From the sequence record NC_070981.1: a stretch of DNA of 64,000 nucleotides, one strand, 5' to 3'. Positions 4,415 to 60,599 of the stretch are shown here, piece after piece (the first letter of the stretch is position 1; every line of letters starts with the position of its first letter). The translations under genes were made by a program, and so were the position numbers. The notes beneath the pieces are model-generated. The model was given only the letters and a program-made list of their open reading frames with translations, was not told the origin of the DNA and made no database searches. The DNA comes from Escherichia phage EK010.

Positions 4415-5317
4415 ATGGCTAAAGTTTTTAATCTGGTTAACGAATCCGGCTTTAATGCACTGGCTAACAACATTCGTAGCAACAACGCGGCAATCAAACA
4501 AGATGTTTCTAATTTCCTGTTAGGTCATTTGCAGCACTTCCGCACTAACGGTAAGAAACTTCATGTATTGCAGGCGGCGGTTGATTTTCTGTTAACTGAA
4601 CGTTATCGTGATTTAGATGTGATTGCAGTTGCAATCTCTTTCCTCACTCCTATCAAGTTTAACACCGATGCGGCAAATGGTCGTAAAAAGTGGATTAATC
4701 TGGAAGGTGAGGCGAAAGCGAAAGAAGATGCGAAAGAAGCGCAAATTAAGGCCAAAATGGAACAAAACCGCGCTCGCTGGTCAAACTCCTTTGAACGCTT
4801 TGCTAAAGGTGAAGACGTGCAGGTTGATAACCCAGCATTCTACAAAGGTTGCAACGACAACGTTCCGGTAGCAAACCAGATCAACCAGAAGGTTAACGAA
4901 AACTTTAATCAGGATATTTATGCACTGGTTGACCGTCTGGCTGCAATCCGTATTGAATCGGCATTACTAGCAGATGAACGCAATGGCGCATCTTCTGATA
5001 ACACTATCGCATTGAGTGAAGAAGTAGGCAAAGTTAAGAAAACTTTCGATTCACTCCTTAAGAAAGTAACCGCTTCAACTGTATCTATCAGCGATGACTA
5101 CCTGATTAATGCCTCGACTAAAGAGCTTGAATCTTTGGACTCATACGCCGATGAAATGGAAAAGGCGATCAACGAAATGACTGAAAAATTGTCTAACCTT
5201 CGCGGTCGTATCTCAAATGCTTCAACTATCAAAGCTAATGAGAAAGCTGCGCAGGAAGAAGAAGAAGTGTTGCGCAAAGCTGCCGAAATCATGGCGGCAC
5301 GCCAACAAGCTGCATAA
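4415..5317 (+). CDS. hypothetical early protein (~300 aa, charged, coiled-coil-like C-terminus)
   Basis: Track ORF 4406-5317; ATG 4415 preceded by AAAGG SD; first gene after promoter/boxA leader. Confidence 0.7.
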   Translation: MAKVFNLVNESGFNALANNIRSNNAAIKQDVSNFLLGHLQHFRTNGKKLHVLQAAVDFLLTERYRDLDVIAVAISFLTPIKFNTDAANGRKKWINLEGEAKAKEDAKEAQIKAKMEQNRARWSNSFERFAKGEDVQVDNPAFYKGCNDNVPVANQINQKVNENFNQDIYALVDRLAAIRIESALLADERNGASSDNTIALSEEVGKVKKTFDSLLKKVTASTVSISDDYLINASTKELESLDSYADEMEKAINEMTEKLSNLRGRISNASTIKANEKAAQEEEEVLRKAAEIMAARQQAA

Positions 5318-5338
5318 CCCATAATAAAGAACAAGTAA

Positions 5339-5371
5339 GGCGCTATTCGAAAAGGTAGCGCCTTTTCTTTT
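5339..5371 (+). terminator. intrinsic terminator
   Basis: GGCGCTA/TAGCGCC stem with T-tract after stop 5317. Confidence 0.7.
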
Positions 5372-5416
5372 ACTAGTGCATTGATTCAGTGTGCTAATCA
5401 AAGAAACTAAAAAGAG

Positions 5417-5650
5417 ATGATCACCATGCCAAAATTGAAAACAGAAGTTAAGATGTATCGTAATATCTTAAACAATATGACCTATCGTAAAACCGATAGA
5501 TATGGAATCGAATGCAAATGCACCCTTACCGGTGAATGGTATCCGTCACCGATTCAAGAACAAGCCTTGATTGATAACTCTGTCACTTATACTATCACGC
5601 AGGAAACTAAGTTAGGTCGTCTACTTCGTAAGCTAGGGCTTCGCAAATGA
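5417..5650 (+). CDS. hypothetical small protein (77 aa)
   Basis: Track ORF with AAAGAG SD-like sequence. Confidence 0.5.
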   Translation: MITMPKLKTEVKMYRNILNNMTYRKTDRYGIECKCTLTGEWYPSPIQEQALIDNSVTYTITQETKLGRLLRKLGLRK

Positions 5651-5868
5651 TTTTAACTCAATCCCACCTTTGCCCCATCTGTAAGAAAGCACGTGCTAAC
5701 AACAACCATCGCAAATGTAGCAGAATCTTACAACGTCGTCGTAATGATGCCGAGATGGATAAGATTCGAAAGAATCAGCATGAGCACGAAAGAAAACAAG
5801 CGGCGATTAGTGCATCTTCTGTAATGTATCGTCGTGTAAGAGCACTCCAATATAAAGAGGTTGTTTAA
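5647..5868 (+). CDS. hypothetical small basic protein with CxxC motif (73 aa)
   Basis: Track ORF; start overlaps upstream stop. Confidence 0.5.
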   Translation: MILTQSHLCPICKKARANNNHRKCSRILQRRRNDAEMDKIRKNQHEHERKQAAISASSVMYRRVRALQYKEVV

Positions 5869-6078
5869 ATGACTAGTTTAAGCACGTTAGAGAAGAAAGC
5901 GACTCGACTGTTAGGGCGTCGTGTCCGCTACCACTACCTGAATAAAGGTAAGGCATTAACCGGACGTATTACCACGGTATCCAGTTGTCGCGGTAAACTG
6001 ATCTCTGTAAGTGTTCTCTTTGATGGTGAAAAGGTAGCAATTACACGTAGTTGGAAGTCATTTAGTTTAATTGATTAA
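5869..6078 (+). CDS. hypothetical small protein (69 aa)
   Basis: Track ORF adjacent to previous gene. Confidence 0.5.
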   Translation: MTSLSTLEKKATRLLGRRVRYHYLNKGKALTGRITTVSSCRGKLISVSVLFDGEKVAITRSWKSFSLID

Positions 6079-6148
6079 GTTATTTGGTTAAGCCTTGCTG
6101 TGTGGTAAGGCTTGCACGATATAATTTATCAGCGAAAGGAATAAAGCA

Positions 6149-6592
6149 ATGGCTAAATCTAAAATCAGCATGAAAGGCGGACGAGTGTTCTCTATGAGTG
6201 AGCTGGAAAAAGAAAAGCCAGCCGCTGTTAACCATATTAGCAAACGTAGCCTTAAACGCAGGGCTATGAAACAGGCCGCTCAAGAACATAAAGAATCTCC
6301 TGTACCAAAGGTACTAGGTCGCCGTGTTCATCGTGCTGATGCGCTTCTTCTTGCTGATCACAAGCGTTCCTTGTTAACCAACGGGGCGGCGAAAACGGAA
6401 CAAGAAAAGCGTTTAGAAATCTTCTGCAACGGTCGCACTAAAGGTAAGCAGAAGAATAAAGGTAGCACTAAGCCGCCGAAAGCATTCCCTACTACTAGCC
6501 AATGTGCACCTGATGTTTTCTACGCTGATAGCAAACACAAGTGGGGAGTTGAAAAATATATTGACCCAATCAAAACAGCAAGAGTTAAGTAA
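6149..6592 (+). CDS. hypothetical basic protein (147 aa)
   Basis: Track ORF; Lys/Arg-rich. Confidence 0.6.
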   Translation: MAKSKISMKGGRVFSMSELEKEKPAAVNHISKRSLKRRAMKQAAQEHKESPVPKVLGRRVHRADALLLADHKRSLLTNGAAKTEQEKRLEIFCNGRTKGKQKNKGSTKPPKAFPTTSQCAPDVFYADSKHKWGVEKYIDPIKTARVK

Positions 6593-6622
6593 GCCCCTTC
6601 TGTACCAGTGGTCAACTACTAT

Positions 6623-6646
6623 GACGCTCTTCTTGAGCGTCTTTTT
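6623..6646 (+). terminator. intrinsic terminator T1
   Basis: GACGCTC/GAGCGTC stem, TTTTT. Confidence 0.75.
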
Positions 6647-6650
6647 GTCT

Positions 6651-6671
6651 GCCGCCTTTGTGCGGCTTTTT
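6651..6671 (+). terminator. intrinsic terminator T2
   Basis: GCCGC/GCGGC stem, TTTTT. Confidence 0.7.
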
Positions 6672-6752
6672 GCGTAGCTAGTGATGCCTAAAGGGAACTC
6701 CCTTTGTGAATCATTGGCATGGTTCAATTCCTATTGGATGGTCATTTGACCG

Positions 6753-6776
6753 GGCCTTTAACGAGGCCTCTTTTTT
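6753..6776 (+). terminator. intrinsic terminator T3
   Basis: GGCCT/AGGCC stem, TCTTTTTT. Confidence 0.55.
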
Positions 6777-6800
6777 AAGAGTCTTTACGAGGATTCTTAA

Positions 6801-6932
6801 ATGAGTGAGGTCATGTTCACTCTTTCAGGTCGCCCCGTCTTCGGATGGGGCTTTTTTATGCCCGTAAAACAGGGGGTAGTAAGTTCTGATAACGACAGCC
6901 CAGCTACTTTTGACATTGACTATTTATTATGA
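6801..6932 (+). CDS. possible short leader ORF (43 aa) spanning terminator T4
   Basis: ATG with GAGGA SD; overlaps start of 6910 gene in another frame; below track size cut-off. Confidence 0.2.
   Translation: MSEVMFTLSGRPVFGWGFFMPVKQGVVSSDNDSPATFDIDYLL
6832..6857 (+). terminator. intrinsic terminator T4
   Basis: GCCCC/GGGGC stem, TTTTTT. Confidence 0.7.
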
Positions 6933-7296
6933 GGCAGGGAATCAGCCAACCGCTTGCAAAGCATTAGTAGCGGATACCGTAATAAACAGAATGTCACAAC
7001 GAAAACTGACTGCCGAGCAGGTTATAAACCAACGAAACCAGTTCGAGTGGATACCCGTCCTATTAAAGAAGGAGAAACCTTTTAAGCGTTATGTAAAGCT
7101 GATTCGTGATGATAATCCTCTGATAAAGAAAGCAATCAGAGAGAGCGAGGAGCTTGCAAGACGTGCACTGAAGAAGGGTTATGTGCCTTTATATAGCGGT
7201 ACATACTTTCAGAGTAAGAGCGAAGGGGTGCCAAAGTGGTATACCAATCCAATGTATTGTGGTGATTTAGTGTTCAATAATAGTGCCCGTGACTGA
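6910..7296 (+). CDS. SleB/CwlJ-like cell-wall hydrolase domain protein
   Basis: IYYEAGNQ...CKALVADTVINR...QVINQRNQFEW motifs typical of Hydrolase_2 family; apparent TTG start. Confidence 0.55.
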   Translation: MTLTIYYEAGNQPTACKALVADTVINRMSQRKLTAEQVINQRNQFEWIPVLLKKEKPFKRYVKLIRDDNPLIKKAIRESEELARRALKKGYVPLYSGTYFQSKSEGVPKWYTNPMYCGDLVFNNSARD

Positions 7297-7497
7297 TTCA
7301 TAGGTGCCAAGATCGACAAACTAAATTCCCTTATAAATCACCTACTTATGATTTTCTCTGTAAAAAGTGGTAGTGATTCGGAACCAGAGGTAATGACTGT
7401 ATATAGACCTCTGAAAATTATTGATAGAAATTAAGTTTAGAAATAATAAATTCTAAATAATATTTCTTATAATATCTTACTTTAAGAGGATAAAGAT

Positions 7498-7803
7498 ATG
7501 ACTTTAGAGGTTTATAAGTTCCTTCTCGTACTCACTGTAACGATCTCTACTCTAGGATTTATTGCTTTAAGTAATAAATCAGCAAGCTGGAAGCGTCGTT
7601 ACGAGTTCCTTCTTAAGCAAGAGGAAGTCTTTAATGCTGATGTTCGTTCCAAACTGCTCAAGATGCAGGAGCAAATTGAAGCACGTAATGATCGTTTGGC
7701 TTCTTTGGGTTGGGAGATTAAACGTATTCAAGATCTCAACAAGCAACTCACTGAAGAAATTAAACGCCAGAATGAGGAAACAGAGGATGCGCTCAAAGGT
7801 TAA
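7498..7803 (+). CDS. membrane protein with N-terminal TM helix and coiled coil
   Basis: Track ORF; hydrophobic FLLVLTVTISTLGFIAL. Confidence 0.55.
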   Translation: MTLEVYKFLLVLTVTISTLGFIALSNKSASWKRRYEFLLKQEEVFNADVRSKLLKMQEQIEARNDRLASLGWEIKRIQDLNKQLTEEIKRQNEETEDALKG

Positions 7804-7963
7804 GTTTACCACTGGTAACACTGTTCGCCTTGTTGGCGGTACTCAAACAGGTGTTATTCGTCGGAGAACAACGATTGATGGTGTTCTCTGTTATCTTGTT
7901 CAGTGGAATGGTGAATCTTCTCCTTCCTTCGAACGTCGTACTGATTTGGTGTTAATCAAATGA
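7787..7963 (+). CDS. hypothetical small protein
   Basis: Internal ATG of track ORF 7634-7963 with GAGGAAACAGAGG SD. Confidence 0.4.
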   Translation: MRSKVKFTTGNTVRLVGGTQTGVIRRRTTIDGVLCYLVQWNGESSPSFERRTDLVLIK

Positions 7964-8190
7964 AAATTAATCTCTTCTCTGTAGTTGTTACCAAAAAGCT
8001 CAGTGAGTTACGTCCTGGCGATGTGTTCCGTTTACCAACTAACTCTGAAAATGTCTACCTAAAGACAGACACTAGACTTAACGATATGCATCGTGTGGTT
8101 GGTCTTAGTCAGGGGACACTGTTCCAATTACAGGAAGACCATGAAGTTATCCCTGTACCTGATGTTCAAGTAACTCATATCGGTGGTTAA
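7960..8190 (+). CDS. small protein, paralog family A (LRPGDxF ... EDxEVxPVP)
   Basis: Track ORF; shares motifs with 13142-13390, 9245-9496, 11500-11754. Confidence 0.55.
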   Translation: MKINLFSVVVTKKLSELRPGDVFRLPTNSENVYLKTDTRLNDMHRVVGLSQGTLFQLQEDHEVIPVPDVQVTHIGG

Positions 8191-8499
8191 ATGATAAATC
8201 TTAATATCCGTAGAGGTTTTTACCCTAAAGTCTCTTTCCGTGCTCAACTGGAGCAGCTTCCTGGTGTAACTTTCTTAGAGTTTACCTACAGCTGCGGTCG
8301 AGACAATCCCGGTTTCACTGTCACAATTGAATCTGGTTGGTTTAATATGACCATCATGCCAGAAGATGTTAACAATGCACTCCGTGGTATTAAGTCCGGC
8401 GGCCTAAACCTTTTAGCTCCCAAGGTGGGTGATGAACTTCTCACTGTGATTCGTAATGGTGTGGATAAAACAGCTAAGATGGTTGAAGCTCTTAAGTAA
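8191..8499 (+). CDS. hypothetical protein (102 aa)
   Basis: Track ORF. Confidence 0.55.
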   Translation: MINLNIRRGFYPKVSFRAQLEQLPGVTFLEFTYSCGRDNPGFTVTIESGWFNMTIMPEDVNNALRGIKSGGLNLLAPKVGDELLTVIRNGVDKTAKMVEALK

Positions 8500-8507
8500 C
8501 ATCGACT

Positions 8508-8580
8508 TATAGCCCTTGTGTTTATCAGAGGGCTATGTGAGGGTGTTCCTCAATTAACTATAATCTCAACGCCATATGGC
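8508..8580 (+). repeat. conserved intergenic hairpin element, copy 1 (TATAGCCCTTGTG..TATCAGAGGGCTATGTGAG ... CTCAA.TAAC)
   Basis: About 32/34 identical to copy at 13395; 8-bp inverted repeat ATAGCCCT/AGGGCTAT. Confidence 0.6.
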
Positions 8581-8728
8581 TCACCGCTAGGGCGAGACTT
8601 GTCTCAAACATCCGGTGATAGACTAAAACCTGTTAATTTTCGAACAGCTTTCCGATATGTAGGGGTATGTATCGGTTTGGGATAGAGAACAATCTAGGGG
8701 TAGAGAGTTCTCGACAGTTAGTACAAGC

Positions 8729-8762
8729 GGAAGCCTTAACGTGTAGGGCTTCCCTTTATATT
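8729..8762 (+). terminator. intrinsic terminator
   Basis: GGAAGCC/GGCTTCC stem followed by CTTTATATT. Confidence 0.45.
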
Positions 8763-8801
8763 AACTGGCAATCCTGCCTTCACCAACAAAGAGAGAACGA
8801 T

Positions 8802-8942
8802 ATGAAGAAGACAACCAAACGTATGAACCGTCCTGAGCGTATGGAAGCAGTGGCAAATGGTGCTCTGAAGATTGAGTCTGCCATGCTTCGTCTGACAACT
8901 AACATCCGTAAGCGTCAAGGTGATTGGTTCTACGGTGGATAA
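8802..8942 (+). CDS. hypothetical small protein (46 aa)
   Basis: ATG with AAGAGAGAA SD after terminator; track ORF 8667-8942 would span the terminator. Confidence 0.4.
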   Translation: MKKTTKRMNRPERMEAVANGALKIESAMLRLTTNIRKRQGDWFYGG

Positions 8943-9025
8943 TTAATAATGGGCTGCCCTTAGGGGTGGCCTTTGTTGTTTTAATTAAGGGACAACTCTT
9001 ACTTAAACTAACAAGAGAGGTTGTT

Positions 9026-9244: not shown

Positions 9245-9496
9245 ATGTTCAATCGTTTATTTGACCGTAAAGGTCGCACTGACATACTGATACCTTCTAT
9301 CGGTGTGCCAGCTAAGTTCGGTGAGATACGTGCTGGTGATTTCTTCATGGAATCAGGTCGTCTTCATCTGAAGATCAACCTTGAACACGCTGTTGAAATC
9401 CTTAGTGATGATAAGCCAATCATCGGCACTTCGGTGTACAGTGCAAACCATACTGTATTTGTTGTCAATGTTCAGATTGAGATTAAATCACCATGA
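9245..9496 (+). CDS. small protein, paralog family A
   Basis: Track ORF; FGEIRAGDFF ... LHLKI motifs. Confidence 0.5.
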   Translation: MFNRLFDRKGRTDILIPSIGVPAKFGEIRAGDFFMESGRLHLKINLEHAVEILSDDKPIIGTSVYSANHTVFVVNVQIEIKSP

Positions 9497-9750
9497 AGAC
9501 AAACTTCCGAGCAGCAGTTATTACTAAAGTAATAGCAGTTGGTGATGTAATGATGCAAGTTCCTCTGAACACTCGTTACATTGCCATTGACCGAATGGGT
9601 TATGTGTGGGCTTGGAAGTGGAAGCCTACTTACAATGAACTGTTCGACGAATACCAGTGCGCTGGGCCTTACATGCCAACGTTGGTTGGTGTGTATGAAG
9701 ACGGTCCTTGTCGTACTCCTCAGTTAATTGAACTACCGGCGTGTGCTTAG
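9493..9750 (+). CDS. hypothetical protein (85 aa)
   Basis: Track ORF. Confidence 0.5.
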   Translation: MKTNFRAAVITKVIAVGDVMMQVPLNTRYIAIDRMGYVWAWKWKPTYNELFDEYQCAGPYMPTLVGVYEDGPCRTPQLIELPACA

Positions 9751-9751
9751 T

Positions 9752-9916
9752 ATGATTAAATGGTTCAAGCGTCTTGTGCACCTGCATGATTGGGTAATCC
9801 TTGAAAAATATACGCTGAAGATTACTGACGATCACGGTGGGACAAAGCACAAAGGTCTTCGCTATATTATGCAGTGTAAAGTGTGTGGTCATGTTACCAA
9901 GCGTGACATGATCTAA
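9752..9916 (+). CDS. small CxxC protein, tandem paralog 1 (MIKWFKRL...)
   Basis: Internal ATG of track ORF 9728-9916; near-identical N-terminus to next gene. Confidence 0.5.
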   Translation: MIKWFKRLVHLHDWVILEKYTLKITDDHGGTKHKGLRYIMQCKVCGHVTKRDMI

Positions 9917-9925
9917 GGGATCATT

Positions 9926-10090
9926 ATGATTAAATGGTTCAAGCGTCTCTTTCATTTCCATGAGTGGGAAGATCTTTCTACTTATGAATTGACGATCACA
10001 AATAAACTTACTGACAGAGAGCGACAAGGGTTGCGTATCTACTCTCGCTGTAAAGTGTGTGGTCTGCACAAGAAAACAGATCTGATCTAA
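9926..10090 (+). CDS. small CxxC protein, tandem paralog 2 (MIKWFKRLFHFHEW...CKVCG)
   Basis: Hand-translated 54-aa ORF below track cut-off; paralogous to flanking genes. Confidence 0.5.
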   Translation: MIKWFKRLFHFHEWEDLSTYELTITNKLTDRERQGLRIYSRCKVCGLHKKTDLI

Positions 10091-10098
10091 GGGGTGTT

Positions 10099-10308
10099 AT
10101 GTTCTTTCGTAAGAAAAAGCCCGAAGATTCTGAGTGTAAGCATGAGTGGGTGATCACTGAAAACCTACATATCACTCACGCTAAAGACACTCCAGTCGAG
10201 AGAAAAGAGTCTCGTGTATCTCGTATCTGTAAGCGCTGTTTGAAAATAGAACAGCATAAAGTTCCCGGTCATATTGGTCATGATGTGGCCTTGCGTATTT
10301 TCAGTTAA
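10099..10308 (+). CDS. small CxxC protein, tandem paralog 3
   Basis: Internal ATG of track ORF 10057-10308; shares HEW ... CKRC pattern. Confidence 0.5.
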   Translation: MFFRKKKPEDSECKHEWVITENLHITHAKDTPVERKESRVSRICKRCLKIEQHKVPGHIGHDVALRIFS

Positions 10309-10317
10309 ATAAATATA

Positions 10318-10395
10318 GCACCCTTAGCTCAATTGGATTAGAGTAGCGACCTTCTAAGTCGTCGGTTACAGGTTCGAATCCTGTAGGGTGCACCA
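10318..10395 (+). tRNA. tRNA-Arg (anticodon UCU)
   Basis: Hand-folded cloverleaf: 7-bp acceptor stem GCACCCT/AGGGTGC, anticodon loop CUUCUAA, T-arm ACAGG-TTCGAAT-CCTGT, encoded CCA. Confidence 0.85.
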
Positions 10396-10413
10396 ATTAA
10401 CGTAGGAGGGCAT

Positions 10414-10740
10414 ATGAGCTGGGGTGGTGTAATTACCTTAACCTGTATCTTTATCGCCTGTGTAGCTCTTACAGGCTGCGTACAGCATCGTCCTGATGGA
10501 TGGTGTGCATTATCGGTAGAAGGTGTCTGTGTTTCCCGTTGGCATAGCGGGGAGAAGATTCCTAGTGGTGAAATTGATATGCGTTATGCTGGTGCTTCTT
10601 GTTCTAATGGCGGTGCTGTTGACGAGAAGGCTTATGCAGAGCGTAACATGGAAACCCAAGGTGATTGGTCACGTTATGACTTCATCTCCCGTGGTGTACA
10701 GTGTAGTGGCTCTGTGACAACAACAGGTAAGGAGTGGTGA
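10414..10740 (+). CDS. Cys-rich lipoprotein (lipobox LTGC)
   Basis: Signal peptide VITLTCIFIACVALTGC; track ORF. Confidence 0.6.
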   Translation: MSWGGVITLTCIFIACVALTGCVQHRPDGWCALSVEGVCVSRWHSGEKIPSGEIDMRYAGASCSNGGAVDEKAYAERNMETQGDWSRYDFISRGVQCSGSVTTTGKEW

Positions 10741-10741
10741 T

Positions 10742-10996
10742 ATGTCTGGTCATTATTCTGATACGAAAGCTTTACTGGAAACAGCGGCTCAGACTTCATG
10801 CCAACAGCAAGTAAAAATGTTGTTGGTTGATATTCGTAATCTGCGTTGGCTTATCAAAGAAGGTCATATCGGAAACGCTGCCTATTACAACGTTAAAGAT
10901 ATCCTTCGCCGCCAGCACTTTCTTATCCACGGAAACGTGGTCACTCGCAACTATCAATGGAACGGTCAATGGTTACAGCAGCGTATGTCCTCCTGA
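10742..10996 (+). CDS. hypothetical protein (84 aa)
   Basis: Track ORF. Confidence 0.5.
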   Translation: MSGHYSDTKALLETAAQTSCQQQVKMLLVDIRNLRWLIKEGHIGNAAYYNVKDILRRQHFLIHGNVVTRNYQWNGQWLQQRMSS

Positions 10997-57599: not shown

Positions 57600-60599
57600 T
57601 TACCTTCGACCGCCAACAGCAAACTCTATAGTGAGTCCATTCATAGATGCATTACTGTTAACATCATTATCTATAACATTATAGAATAGGTATGGATGGT
57701 TCAATCTTACTGACACATGACGGTCTACCCCAACCCTAAACTCTTTAGTTGAGTGATTATGTCCATACTCATTAGAGAATTGACTTCCACCTGCTTCGAA
57801 CATATAAGTGCCTGTTCCTGTCACTTGTGGTCTAAACCTGTTGATGTGTTTTTGATTCCATTCATTAGTGACATTATCAAAGTCAATACCAGTCCTCTCT
57901 AGCCTCATTTCTAAAGGCCTTTCTATGACTGTATCGTTTGATCTGTCATAAAAATAATCTAAAGCACCAACATCTACTTGATAGAACCCTCTCAAGAAAG
58001 AACCTACTATTGTAACCCTCTGACGGAAGTTTGTTGCATCCTTTCTCCAGACAAGTTTATCAATAGATGGATCATCCCAAGTGACTTCTTGAAAATCTGC
58101 CCAAATAGGACCACGCTCAAGAACAGGAGGATCAACCAAACCAATACAATAAGAGTGTGGAATAGTACGGAAAGACCAAGTATCAAATTCGTAGTTCCAA
58201 ACAGCAGCTTTGGTACAAGCGAAACTCTCTTTTGGCTCTCCCGGTCCTACGTATAGAATCCAAACTTCTTTCTTATCTTGGTGTAGGTGAACTTTAGTAG
58301 CTATGGGATTAACTAAACAAATCTCATTGATTAGCATATTCTTAACACGATTGGAAGCAATTGACTTCTTAGATGCCCCATTATGAAGAATAACATCGTT
58401 CTGAGTAACTACAAAATGACCACCCTCTACTTCCACAACACATTCGGGAGCAAGAATTCCTGAATCGTTAAACAACTTCTTAAACATCAGAGGTTGATAT
58501 GTGTTATTAGTGGGTGACCCAATGTATGTCTCAAATTCAGTGTAAACAAACAAATAGTCCTTCAGAGGTAACACTTCTATAAGACTACCGTTCGAATCTG
58601 CAAGATCAATATACCCTGCATACCCATTCTCAAGAGCTTCAGTCTGTCCGACAATATTAGCAGCAAGATCAGAGCTGACAGCCCTATCATATGCATAATC
58701 ATCCCACAGCTCTGGAGCCTTGTTCTCTTCTGCAAAATTAGACCAACGAAGACGCAACGGGTAATGTGTTGTAACGCCAGAAGCATTAGATTCTCTCATA
58801 TTCAGAGCAAACAATCTGTTGTTAAATGCACGAATGCGCTCACACTTCCAGTTATACTTCTTAACAGAAGGGTTCCCTGATGCATCTACTACTGTCTGTT
58901 CGCCCCATCCCGGCAAGTCAACAAAGTATTCAGAATCAAACTCTTTAACTTGAGGAGTTTCATAATGGGTGGTTGCAACTGCACAGTTAGAGATGATAGT
59001 ATGATACCACGGGTAATCTTCAAAAGCATCGTAGTCTTTTTGAACCATCTGACTTACAGTGCAGGTAACTTTCACTTCACCCTTACGGAGAGCTGTGAGC
59101 TTGAGAGTAGGGCTACTAGTGTTGGTAGTAGACACATAACCACTCTTATCTACAGTCCATTTATAGGAATAGTTACCAGTCGGAGAAGCTGTTGCTGTCA
59201 ATACAATCTCTTCACCAACATCCAGAGAGGCATCTATAATATCCAAAGTCACGCCACTTAAAGGAGGGTCATTAGCTAGAAGAGCAGCTCTGCCAAAACC
59301 TTCAAGGTCCATTACGTTAGAGTAGTCATAGAAATTGTTACCTTCTGCCATACCTGTTGTATCAATTCCAGTGTTCTCTGATGCAAAATATACCACATCT
59401 TCTTTCTCAATCACAGGCTCTTCTACCGGAGCTTCAGGAGTAATAGAGTAAGACAAAGAACGAGCCATTCTAGAAGCCAAACCAACTTGAACTTCACAAG
59501 TAGCGGTACGTTTACCTTCTACAGTTGTTGCCGTGATTTGAGTATACCCCGCTACTAGGCCAGTAATGGTTGCTTCTGTACTAGAACCACTAACAGTAGC
59601 AATGTTGGGGTTAGAACTTGTCCAAGTGATTGCTTTGTTAGGGGCATTGGCTGGATTAACCGTAGCTGTTAGTATGTACTGAGTCCCCCTATTCATTGTT
59701 ACATTCTCTTGACTTAAAGAGATGCTATCAATCTGAGGAATTGCAGAAACTACACAAGATGCAGTTTTTGTCCCATTATCAGCTGTAATGGTTACGTTAC
59801 CTTCTCCTGAAGCCCTCAACACTGCGGTTAAAGAGTTTGAGTTAGGAGTGACTGACACAATACTTGGATTAGAGCTTGTCCAAGTGACGCTTGGTTTTCC
59901 TGTAATAGCAGTAAGTGTTGAAGTTCCTCCTTTTCTCACTGTCAATGTATCCTGACTTAAGAAGATTCCAGAATCTCCATCAATAATGTTAACTGCAATC
60001 TGAGTAGAAATGGATTCATCTGCCGTTCGAACTGTAACTACTAAATTACCCTCAACAGCTTTAGAAGTAAGAGTTGCTCTCTTAGAATCTGTAGGATCAA
60101 CAACAATACTGCCATAGGCTGAGTTACTTACTGACCAAACTAGGTTAGTATTTTGTGCATCTTCTGGAGTTACACTAACTTCCAAAACCTTTGTTTTATT
60201 GAAAGTCATAGAAACAGAGGATTCTTTAGGGGTAATAGAAGATACTACCGGATAAATCTTAAGTGTCGCTGTTGCTTTCTTAGTTGCTGTAGCAACCTTG
60301 CGACTGATGTCAGTAAGCCCTTCATCAGTTAATTTGTACAACTTCTTATCTGTACCAACTACAAGGAAACTGTTGCCAGCGCTATAATAGTCAAAAGGCA
60401 TAGAGATGAAAGAGAGGGGGGTAAGCTCCTTATCTTCATCAACGTAAGAAAGAGGGGCATTGCCCCCCGTCTTAAAAACCCTTTGCTCAACAAAACGAGC
60501 ATTAATAGCGTTAGTGAAAGCATTTGGTGCTAAGTCAGTAGGTGCTTGGTCAGCGATAACCCCAACTGCCCCTAATGATTTTATTGGATATAAAGCCAT
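57600..60599 (-). CDS. large tail protein with tandem bacterial Ig-like (Big_2) domains
   Basis: Repeated Big_2-like segments (e.g. QENVTMNRGTQYILTATVNPANAPNKAITWTSSNPNIATVS). Confidence 0.7.
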   Translation of the reverse strand: MALYPIKSLGAVGVIADQAPTDLAPNAFTNAINARFVEQRVFKTGGNAPLSYVDEDKELTPLSFISMPFDYYSAGNSFLVVGTDKKLYKLTDEGLTDISRKVATATKKATATLKIYPVVSSITPKESSVSMTFNKTKVLEVSVTPEDAQNTNLVWSVSNSAYGSIVVDPTDSKRATLTSKAVEGNLVVTVRTADESISTQIAVNIIDGDSGIFLSQDTLTVRKGGTSTLTAITGKPSVTWTSSNPSIVSVTPNSNSLTAVLRASGEGNVTITADNGTKTASCVVSAIPQIDSISLSQENVTMNRGTQYILTATVNPANAPNKAITWTSSNPNIATVSGSSTEATITGLVAGYTQITATTVEGKRTATCEVQVGLASRMARSLSYSITPEAPVEEPVIEKEDVVYFASENTGIDTTGMAEGNNFYDYSNVMDLEGFGRAALLANDPPLSGVTLDIIDASLDVGEEIVLTATASPTGNYSYKWTVDKSGYVSTTNTSSPTLKLTALRKGEVKVTCTVSQMVQKDYDAFEDYPWYHTIISNCAVATTHYETPQVKEFDSEYFVDLPGWGEQTVVDASGNPSVKKYNWKCERIRAFNNRLFALNMRESNASGVTTHYPLRLRWSNFAEENKAPELWDDYAYDRAVSSDLAANIVGQTEALENGYAGYIDLADSNGSLIEVLPLKDYLFVYTEFETYIGSPTNNTYQPLMFKKLFNDSGILAPECVVEVEGGHFVVTQNDVILHNGASKKSIASNRVKNMLINEICLVNPIATKVHLHQDKKEVWILYVGPGEPKESFACTKAAVWNYEFDTWSFRTIPHSYCIGLVDPPVLERGPIWADFQEVTWDDPSIDKLVWRKDATNFRQRVTIVGSFLRGFYQVDVGALDYFYDRSNDTVIERPLEMRLERTGIDFDNVTNEWNQKHINRFRPQVTGTGTYMFEAGGSQFSNEYGHNHSTKEFRVGVDRHVSVRLNHPYLFYNVIDNDVNSNASMNGLTIEFAVGGRR

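Follow-up and report, generated by a model that had tools for sequence, protein, structure and literature searches.

Directly upstream of a tRNA-Arg(UCU) gene, the window (the whole 64,000-nt stretch of phage DNA analysed here) carries three very small genes, which we read as a variable array of diverged mini-genes sharing a putative metal-binding tetrad. The array was probably assembled by recombination, and its products may act early in infection as zinc-stabilized binders of host macromolecules; we put the probability of this reading, taken as a whole, at roughly 55%. Between one and three such early mini-genes, in varying arrays, occupy this locus across the Kuravirus-like coliphages, and each encodes a strongly basic product of 5-8 kDa.

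The three ORFs lie on the + strand at 9752-9916 (copy 1), 9926-10090 (copy 2) and 10099-10308 (copy 3), the coordinates given in the original prediction. An ORF scan together with ARAGORN and Rfam bears out the claim that three adjacent, co-oriented, tiny CxxC genes directly precede tRNA-Arg(UCU), which occupies 10318-10395 on the same strand (RF00005, 67.5 bits at 10318-10392; the CCA end is encoded at 10393-10395). Copy 1, of the type that we call alpha and that resembles phiEco32 gp107, encodes a basic protein of 54 aa (pI 9.7) with H10-x-H12-x-W14 followed by C42-x-x-C45-G. Copy 2, of the beta type, encodes a basic protein of the same length (pI 9.4) with the same HxHxW...CxxCG tetrad. The product of copy 3, a member of what we call the B family, is also basic (69 aa, pI 9.4) and has C13-x-H15-x-W17 and C44-x-x-C47, followed by a C-terminal extension in which H53, G57-H58 and a terminal helix are conserved. 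The pattern MIKWFKRL / H(E/D)W / CK(V/R)CG had been ascribed to all three ORFs; it is present in copies 1 and 2, but in copy 3 MIKWFKRL is missing and the CxxC segment reads CKRCL. Scanning all 64 kb by motif for further [H/C]xH[ED]W...CxxC ORFs detected none beyond copies 1-3.

The ATG of copy 1 lies 1 nt past the stop codon of an early ORF of 85 aa (9493-9750, + strand; TAG-T-ATG), and the start of copy 1 appears to be coupled to that stop. The ORFs had been described as separated by stop-start junctions only. The junctions are indeed short, but the gaps of 9 and 8 nt each hold a Shine-Dalgarno-like AAGGG(G): AAGGG stands 6 nt 5' of the copy 2 ATG, and AAGGGG precedes copy 3 at normal spacing. 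Start to start, the units of the array measure 174 and 173 nt. The early operon encloses the tRNA gene, which is separated by 9 nt from the copy 3 stop codon on one side and by 18 nt from the next ATG on the other.

Window bases 9400-10800 are 100% identical to the reverse strand of OP293233.1, the genome of Escherichia phage E20-1 (Gordonclarkvirinae, Kuravirus), and 90-97% identical to many other phiEco32-like coliphages. GenBank OP293233 leaves copy 1 unannotated, although the record of phage PAS59 does annotate an identical ORF. The region corresponds to the early-gene block of phiEco32-like phages, which consists almost entirely of hypothetical genes and is transcribed by the host sigma70 RNA polymerase (PMC4281155, PMC9965538). 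Sigma70-like promoter sites were not enriched around the array (11 found, 16 expected), and we therefore do not claim an internal promoter.

Copies 1 and 2 are clearly related to each other. BLASTP aligned them over their full length at 50% identity (E=1e-17), so that the similarity predicted for this pair passes a significance test, and both matched the phrog_8294 profile of PHROG (56 positions) over residues 1-54, with E values of 9.4e-22 for copy 1 and 1.2e-17 for copy 2. The protein encoded by copy 1 is 87% identical to phiEco32 gp107. Between the two copies dN is 0.43 and dS is ~2.5; they are anciently diverged paralogues in which synonymous sites are saturated. Genes of the copy 1/2 type were found by tblastn in 89 phage records, all of them Kuravirus-like, and 32 of the 89 have two. 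To define the superfamily at large, an 18-sequence copy 1/2 profile was run in an exhaustive HMMER search of 1.84 billion cluster representatives (E<=1e-3). It matched 398 proteins, representing clusters at 50% identity and nearly all 47-70 aa long, and ten diverse members that were tested all mapped to phrog_8294. One of the 398, the 182-aa protein P0101, contains three fused copies of the domain, with CxHxW and HGHxW first knuckles mixed in one chain.

Outside the Kuravirus-like group, members from cultured phages were found only in a few Pseudomonas podophages; among these, Pseudomonas phage TL has an unannotated superfamily ORF in its early region. No member turned up when 185,579 bacterial genomes were scanned with a sequence pattern, and the phrog_8294 superfamily thus appears to be phage-only. 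Searches of metagenome contigs produced six Kuravirus-like loci only and added no diversity, IMG/VR mostly returned cultured phages that were already known, and single-sequence queries in a word-indexed protein search brought up close relatives and nothing further. Nothing in Pfam, NCBIfam or PADLOC scored above the curated or gathering threshold with copies 1-3 or with ten diverse homologues, and no PDB match was obtained for the superfamily. The literature searched, the phiEco32 genome and transcription papers (PMC2587145, PMC3275717) excepted, yielded no work on what phiEco32 gp107 or its relatives do; a paper on the sRNA svsR of Kuraviruses proved to be unrelated to the array.

The tetrad is nearly invariant in these proteins. 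Among 162 homologues of copies 1 and 2, position 10 is His in 144 and Cys in 13, and the remaining core positions are nearly fixed (His12 in 161, Trp or Tyr at position 14 in 158, Cys42 in 161, Cys45 in 162 and Gly46 in 156), with residues 18-34 hypervariable and marked by indels. In the copy 3 family, H15, C44 and C47 are invariant and the first position is Cys; one CxxH variant was observed. Interchange of His and Cys is typical of a metal ligand, and the interchange at position 10 of the copy 1/2 superfamily is the same change that sets the copy 3 family, with its CxH, apart. The four Cys/His ligands are arranged in two knuckles, as in a zinc ribbon. The AF2 model of copy 1 (pLDDT 74) has a helix at residues 3-8 and strands at 14-25, 31-42 and 48-53, and that of copy 3 (pLDDT 70, from a shallow alignment) has strands at 15-28, 31-44 and 50-56 and a helix at 60-68. 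The topologies agree: in both models the first knuckle is just before strand 1 and the CxxC occupies the turn that links strand 2 to strand 3. When the copy 1 model was submitted to Foldseek, its matches included a viral protein of 69 aa whose identity is unverified (TMq 0.78) and further viral proteins with TFIIS-type or zinc-ribbon labels. These results suggest a three-stranded zinc-ribbon topology for copies 1-3, all of them basic proteins, each of which would fold around one Zn2+.

How such proteins might serve the phage can be outlined with low confidence. They would be made from an early operon transcribed by the host RNAP, with translation either driven by the Shine-Dalgarno sequences or coupled. 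The genomic context and the pattern of variability suggest that the hypervariable beta-hairpin (residues ~18-34) and the basic surface might bind a host macromolecule early in infection, for the purpose of host takeover or counter-defence, and that different cassettes might confer different specificities. This assignment is tentative, and we would not give it even odds. The Gordonclarkvirinae are described as strongly resistant to the defence systems against which they were tested, and as little studied at the molecular level (PMC11990801), which we take as context and not as evidence of a role.

The main functional alternative, if on the whole unlikely, is that the proteins are nucleic-acid binders rather than inhibitors of host proteins, serving as regulators of transcription or translation or as RNA chaperones for the early operon or for tRNA maturation. 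Their pI of 9.4-9.7 and net charge of +4 to +6 would suit such a function. Zinc ribbons often bind nucleic acids, and NrdR is among the weak fold neighbours detected, together with viral proteins that carry TFIIS-type or LEF5-like labels. None of these structural matches was significant, however, and a hypervariable hairpin is better suited to diversifying protein-protein recognition. Charge and fold class by themselves fit a nucleic-acid-binding regulator and a takeover or counter-defence protein equally well.

A link to the tRNA would also favour nucleic-acid binding, given that the arrays of Kuravirus-like phages either adjoin the tRNA gene directly or are set off from it by a variable insert of ~450 nt. 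The tRNA-Arg(UCU) gene, which is ~86% identical to an E. coli tRNA-Arg, was found downstream of the array in every Kuravirus-like relative examined. The gene that abuts it varies, however, being of the copy 1/2 type, of the copy 3 type or an unrelated 89-aa ORF. Moreover, no tRNA was detected near family members in the flanks fetched from 87-88 kb metagenomic phages and Vequintavirinae, and a neighbouring tRNA is thus not a feature of the family at large. Because the abutting gene varies and members elsewhere have no tRNA nearby, the adjacency is a group-specific synteny in which the tRNA is a fixed landmark and not a partner of the protein family. The same variation and the same tRNA-free members count against a role in nucleic-acid binding, and we continue to favour, at the low confidence stated, the binding of a host macromolecule for takeover or counter-defence.

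The observation that tRNA-Arg(UCU) reads AGA, a codon rare in E. coli, is correct but has already been published: for phage YF01, in which AGA makes up 20.2% of Arg codons, the rarity of AGA in the host and the codon-compensation argument have both been set out (PMC9965538). The proposed check of codon usage gave a figure in line with this: across 82 crude ORF calls made on the window, 17.8% of the Arg codons were AGA. The gene is thus a genuine tRNA of the codon-compensating kind, with the rarity of AGA in the host taken from the same source (PMC9965538).

The position of copy 3 is less straightforward than that of the other two. It matched phrog_13426 over residues 2-69 (E=8e-38) and gave no match to phrog_8294 at E<=10, and neither copy 1 nor copy 2 matched phrog_13426. 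A homologue search found copy 3-type genes in 75 records, from Kuravirus-like phages and from Vequintavirinae. The latter include Certrevirus and other myophages of Cronobacter, Enterobacter, Pectobacterium, Serratia and E. coli, and in them the gene is solitary, with neither a copy 1/2-type gene nor a tRNA nearby. The pairwise significance of the similarity to copy 3 is marginal (E=0.13 for copy 1 and 6e-4 for copy 2); the predicted three-way similarity therefore holds firmly for one pair only, and for copy 3 it is profile tests that support a remote relationship. When the 980 six-frame ORFs of the window were scored with a profile of 162 sequences of the copy 1/2 superfamily, copy 3 ranked third (15.7-16.1 bits, E=4.9e-4). 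The next-best ORF had an E value of 0.14; this fourth match, at 60144-60329, is an antisense ORF inside a gene of 999 aa and was discarded.

We considered whether copy 3 could instead be an unrelated small zinc-binding protein that arrived at CxH...CxxC by convergence and is a neighbour by chance. Its separate PHROG and the E value of 0.13 with copy 1 are compatible with this, as are a C-terminal extension of its own and the absence of an N-terminal helix of the MxKWFKRL kind. Alignment of the two families with hhalign gave a P value of ~1e-3 but a probability of only 16-23%, and the reciprocal structural match was weak, the copy 1/2 family appearing at rank 35 (E=0.41) in a Foldseek search with the copy 3 model. 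In shuffling experiments, however, a score of 16.1 bits was attained by none of 5000 fully shuffled copy 3 sequences and by only 3 of 5000 in which the four ligands were held fixed, arguing that the match goes beyond the Cys and His residues. The third place among the 980 ORFs points the same way. Members of the copy 3 family from Vequintavirus, which have no copy 1/2-type neighbour, matched the profile too (17.3 and 12.0 bits), and the N-termini of the family read MGWF..K, an echo of MxKWFK. Furthermore, the exchange of His for Cys at the first ligand is found inside the copy 1/2 superfamily (13 of the 162 homologues) and within the single protein P0101. With the copy 1 model as query, Foldseek retrieved I1TR93 of Cronobacter phage CR3 as well; as the copy 3 model recovers this protein at rank 3, we place I1TR93 in the copy 3 family. 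Convergence therefore seems to us fairly unlikely, and copy 3 probably belongs to the copy 1/2 superfamily as a far-diverged branch rather than as a sibling copy.

Comparison at the DNA level revealed how copies 1 and 2 resemble each other. A direct repeat joins their 5' ends, with one arm at 9751-9825 and the other, 174 nt downstream, at 9925-9999 (both on the + strand). Within these arms the first 23 nt of the two coding sequences are identical, and ~44 nt are shared with the beta genes of other phages. Besides these 23 nt, and although synonymous sites are saturated overall, the copies are identical in two further stretches, the 16 nt coding for the CKVCG knuckle (TGTAAAGTGTGTGGTC, at 9875-9890 on the + strand with its partner at 10049-10064, also +) and the junction made up of stop codon and Shine-Dalgarno sequence (ATCTAAGGG). 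No third repeat was found at the DNA level, and Tandem Repeats Finder detected no tandem array.

Six architectures of the array were identified upstream of the tRNA in relatives. The alpha gene stands alone in phiEco32 and VTCCBPA_211, and the delta gene does so in IMEP8, KBNP1711 and SU10. Two-gene arrays are [gamma,B] in 172-1 and NJ01 and [beta,B] in SU7. The three-gene arrays are [gamma,beta,B], in Bas86, ECBP2, CHD5UKE1, EcoN5, MLP3, TH42 and TH43, and [alpha,beta,B], in E20-1 and PAS59 only. The first slot is thus interchangeable, being filled by alpha, gamma or delta depending on the phage, and beta and B are optional; in the sampled arrays the beta gene is directly upstream of B wherever both occur. 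Only two of the 14 alpha-carrying records (E20-1 and PAS59; 89 records in all) have a second gene of the copy 1/2 type.

Phage SU7 is 95-97% identical to E20-1 on both sides of copy 1. In SU7 the homologue of the 85-aa ORF directly adjoins the beta gene, which defines copy 1 as an indel. This indel is 174 nt long and is bounded by a 44-nt repeat, since the first 44 nt of the SU7 beta gene equal window bases 9751-9794 and also 9925-9968. The body of copy 1 is nearest to alpha genes of the phiEco32 type (~80% identity in nucleotides and 87-93% in amino acids). We regard the repeat arm at the 5' end as a probable recombination handle. The simplest reading of these comparisons is that phages with different cassettes recombined, by homologous or unequal exchange, where the 5' ends are conserved, and not that a gene was triplicated in place. 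A cassette of the phiEco32 type would thereby have come to stand ahead of a [beta,B] pair of the SU7 type. Alternatively, selection on translation initiation, and not recombination, could account for the identical DNA patches.

According to the original prediction, the three genes are a tandem triplication. On such a view, one ancestral gene would have been copied twice in place and the copies would then have diverged, the third one the most. It is true that the genes are adjacent and co-oriented and form units of almost equal length (174 and 173 nt), that the junction ATCTAAGGG is shared and that the xHxW...CxxC core is present in all three. Three repeat units at the DNA level, or copies of comparable divergence, were not observed, however, and the array is not inherited as a unit among relatives. 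With synonymous sites saturated between copies 1 and 2 (dS ~2.5), no third DNA repeat, and a copy 3 that belongs to another PHROG and whose family is distributed independently in the Vequintavirinae, what had been taken for three sibling copies is better described as two old paralogues and a distant relative. The exchange of types in the first slot among the six architectures, the restriction of alpha plus beta to two of 14 alpha-type records and the repeat-flanked boundaries of the SU7/E20-1 indel likewise argue against copying in place, which we consider highly doubtful. Assembly of the array by recombination between phages remains the reading that we prefer.

With orthologues from 17 related phages, dN/dS values computed by the Nei-Gojobori method within each gene type were 0.22 for alpha, 0.27 for beta, 0.08 for gamma, 0.10 for delta and 0.10 for B, which amounts to purifying selection on the protein sequence in all five and marks the frames as real coding genes. 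We give next to no chance to the view that the ORFs are untranslated and the region is a transcribed leader of the tRNA with chance or relic frames: the ORFs are very short and copy 1 is absent from the E20-1 GenBank annotation, but dN/dS of 0.08-0.27 in five independent orthologue sets makes a mere tRNA leader very unlikely, and the Cys/His tetrad is kept across 162 diverged homologues, the Shine-Dalgarno motifs are correctly spaced and 398 protein clusters have the same length.

The locus is largely ordinary and its direct value modest. The analysis corrects the triplication reading, identifies deposited genomes whose annotation omits family genes (E20-1, ECBP2, SU7 and Pseudomonas phage TL) and defines a compact superfamily of predicted zinc ribbons, apparently confined to phages, which numbers 398 clusters at 50% identity and has neither a Pfam entry nor a structure or assigned function. 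Phages of the Kuravirus-like group are abundant, serve in therapy studies and reportedly resist defence systems very well; they can be studied on E. coli K-12 by way of the BASEL collection (Bas86-91). Their abundance and their accessibility on K-12 make the variable early array an easy experimental target. Should the cassettes turn out to inhibit host factors or defences, their conserved handles would offer an example of a simple route by which early genes are exchanged as modules. More broadly, phrog_8294 and phrog_13426 might form one large phage-only His/Cys zinc-ribbon superfamily of exchangeable specificity cassettes. The 5' handle (coding for MxKWFKRL) and the 3' handle (stop codon plus Shine-Dalgarno sequence) would then let lytic phages swap and stack hairpin variants, each neutralizing a different host factor or defence, which might contribute to the resistance of the Gordonclarkvirinae; taken as a whole, this scenario strikes us as improbable.

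Set against known systems, the tRNA-Arg(UCU) offers nothing new, its gene, anticodon and place in the early region all being the same as in YF01 and phiEco32, and the tRNA part of the locus adds nothing to the published codon explanation. The proteins add new, so far uncharacterised members to the putative zinc ribbons. Copies 1 and 2 conform to phrog_8294, a family with no Pfam entry, structure or described function that includes phiEco32 gp107 (phi32_107): they share its size (50-56 aa), its HxHxW...CKxCG and, as in phiEco32 itself, a place upstream of tRNA-Arg. They differ from the norm of that family in that E20-1 has two members side by side, and the alpha and beta pair is confined to E20-1 and PAS59. 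Copy 3 resembles the members of phrog_13426, such as ECBP2_0103 and CR9_052 of a Cronobacter phage, in its CxHxW...CxxC core and its C-terminal H.V.GH...IF extension. In Kuravirus-like phages the phrog_13426 gene is the last protein gene of the array and in Vequintavirinae it stands alone, and its relationship to phrog_8294 is visible at the profile level only. The predicted fold of all three proteins recalls the zinc ribbons of the TFIIS C-terminal domain and the NrdR N-terminal region and the knuckles of the rubredoxin-like type, with two knuckles that supply four ligands, an xHx before strand 1 and a CxxC between strands 2 and 3 of what AF2 models as a three-stranded antiparallel sheet.

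The copy 1/2 superfamily profile also matches some longer proteins. P0101, a metagenomic protein of 182 aa, carries three fused xHxW…CxxC domains with mixed first knuckles (CxH and HGH), and the domain therefore multiplies within a single polypeptide as well. P0033, P0129 (546 aa) and P0077 (1301 aa) are long proteins with 5-8 repeats of '…KILVRCKVCGHEW…GCPxC', and their match is restricted to the CKVCG segment of the profile. These three appear to represent a separate repeated zinc-ribbon family, and were left out of the superfamily alignment.

Several deposited annotations omit members of the mini-protein family. One of these is copy 1 (window 9752-9916), which is unannotated in the record of E20-1 itself; the 48-aa gamma-type gene of ECBP2 (locus L006, 1345-1491) is likewise absent from its own record, and so is the beta gene from the RefSeq record of SU7 (L027, 1201-1365). 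The family member in Pseudomonas phage TL (L034, 3429-3668) lies out of frame beneath the 3' end of the annotated gp08. In some relatives, an additional insert of ~450 nt, which codes for an 89-aa ORF (MTTIGIISVNSAEIG…), separates the B gene (the copy 3 type) from the tRNA. The insert or its ORF was located in ECBP2 (L006, 1941-2210), 172-1 (L005, 1511-1780) and CHD5UKE1 (L022, 1584-2030), and also in loci L028 and L029. The CHD5UKE1 annotation fills this space with three tiny minus-strand ORFs, which are probably mis-annotations.

Upstream of the array, the plus strand of window 5300-9000 contains 14 terminator-like hairpins, about twice the 6.9 expected from shuffled sequence, including a cluster at 6623-6851 and others at 8729-8753 and 8951-8972; these hairpins may mark the boundaries of early transcription units. 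The tRNA-Arg gene (10318-10395) lies within the operon, with a stop codon 9 nt before it and the next start codon 18 nt after it, and neither a promoter nor a terminator of its own was detectable. Excision of the tRNA by RNase P, together with maturation of its 3' end, would necessarily sever the early polycistronic mRNA, with the zinc-ribbon genes on one side of the break and the lipoprotein gene on the other. The latter is a 108-aa ORF on the plus strand (10414-10740), immediately 3' of the tRNA, that is preceded by a strong Shine-Dalgarno sequence (AGGAGGG) and encodes a lipoprotein-type signal (…FIACVALTGC) with the lipobox LTGC. The E20-1 record does not annotate this ORF. In phiEco32, the equivalent position is occupied by gp106, a 'putative phage lipoprotein'.
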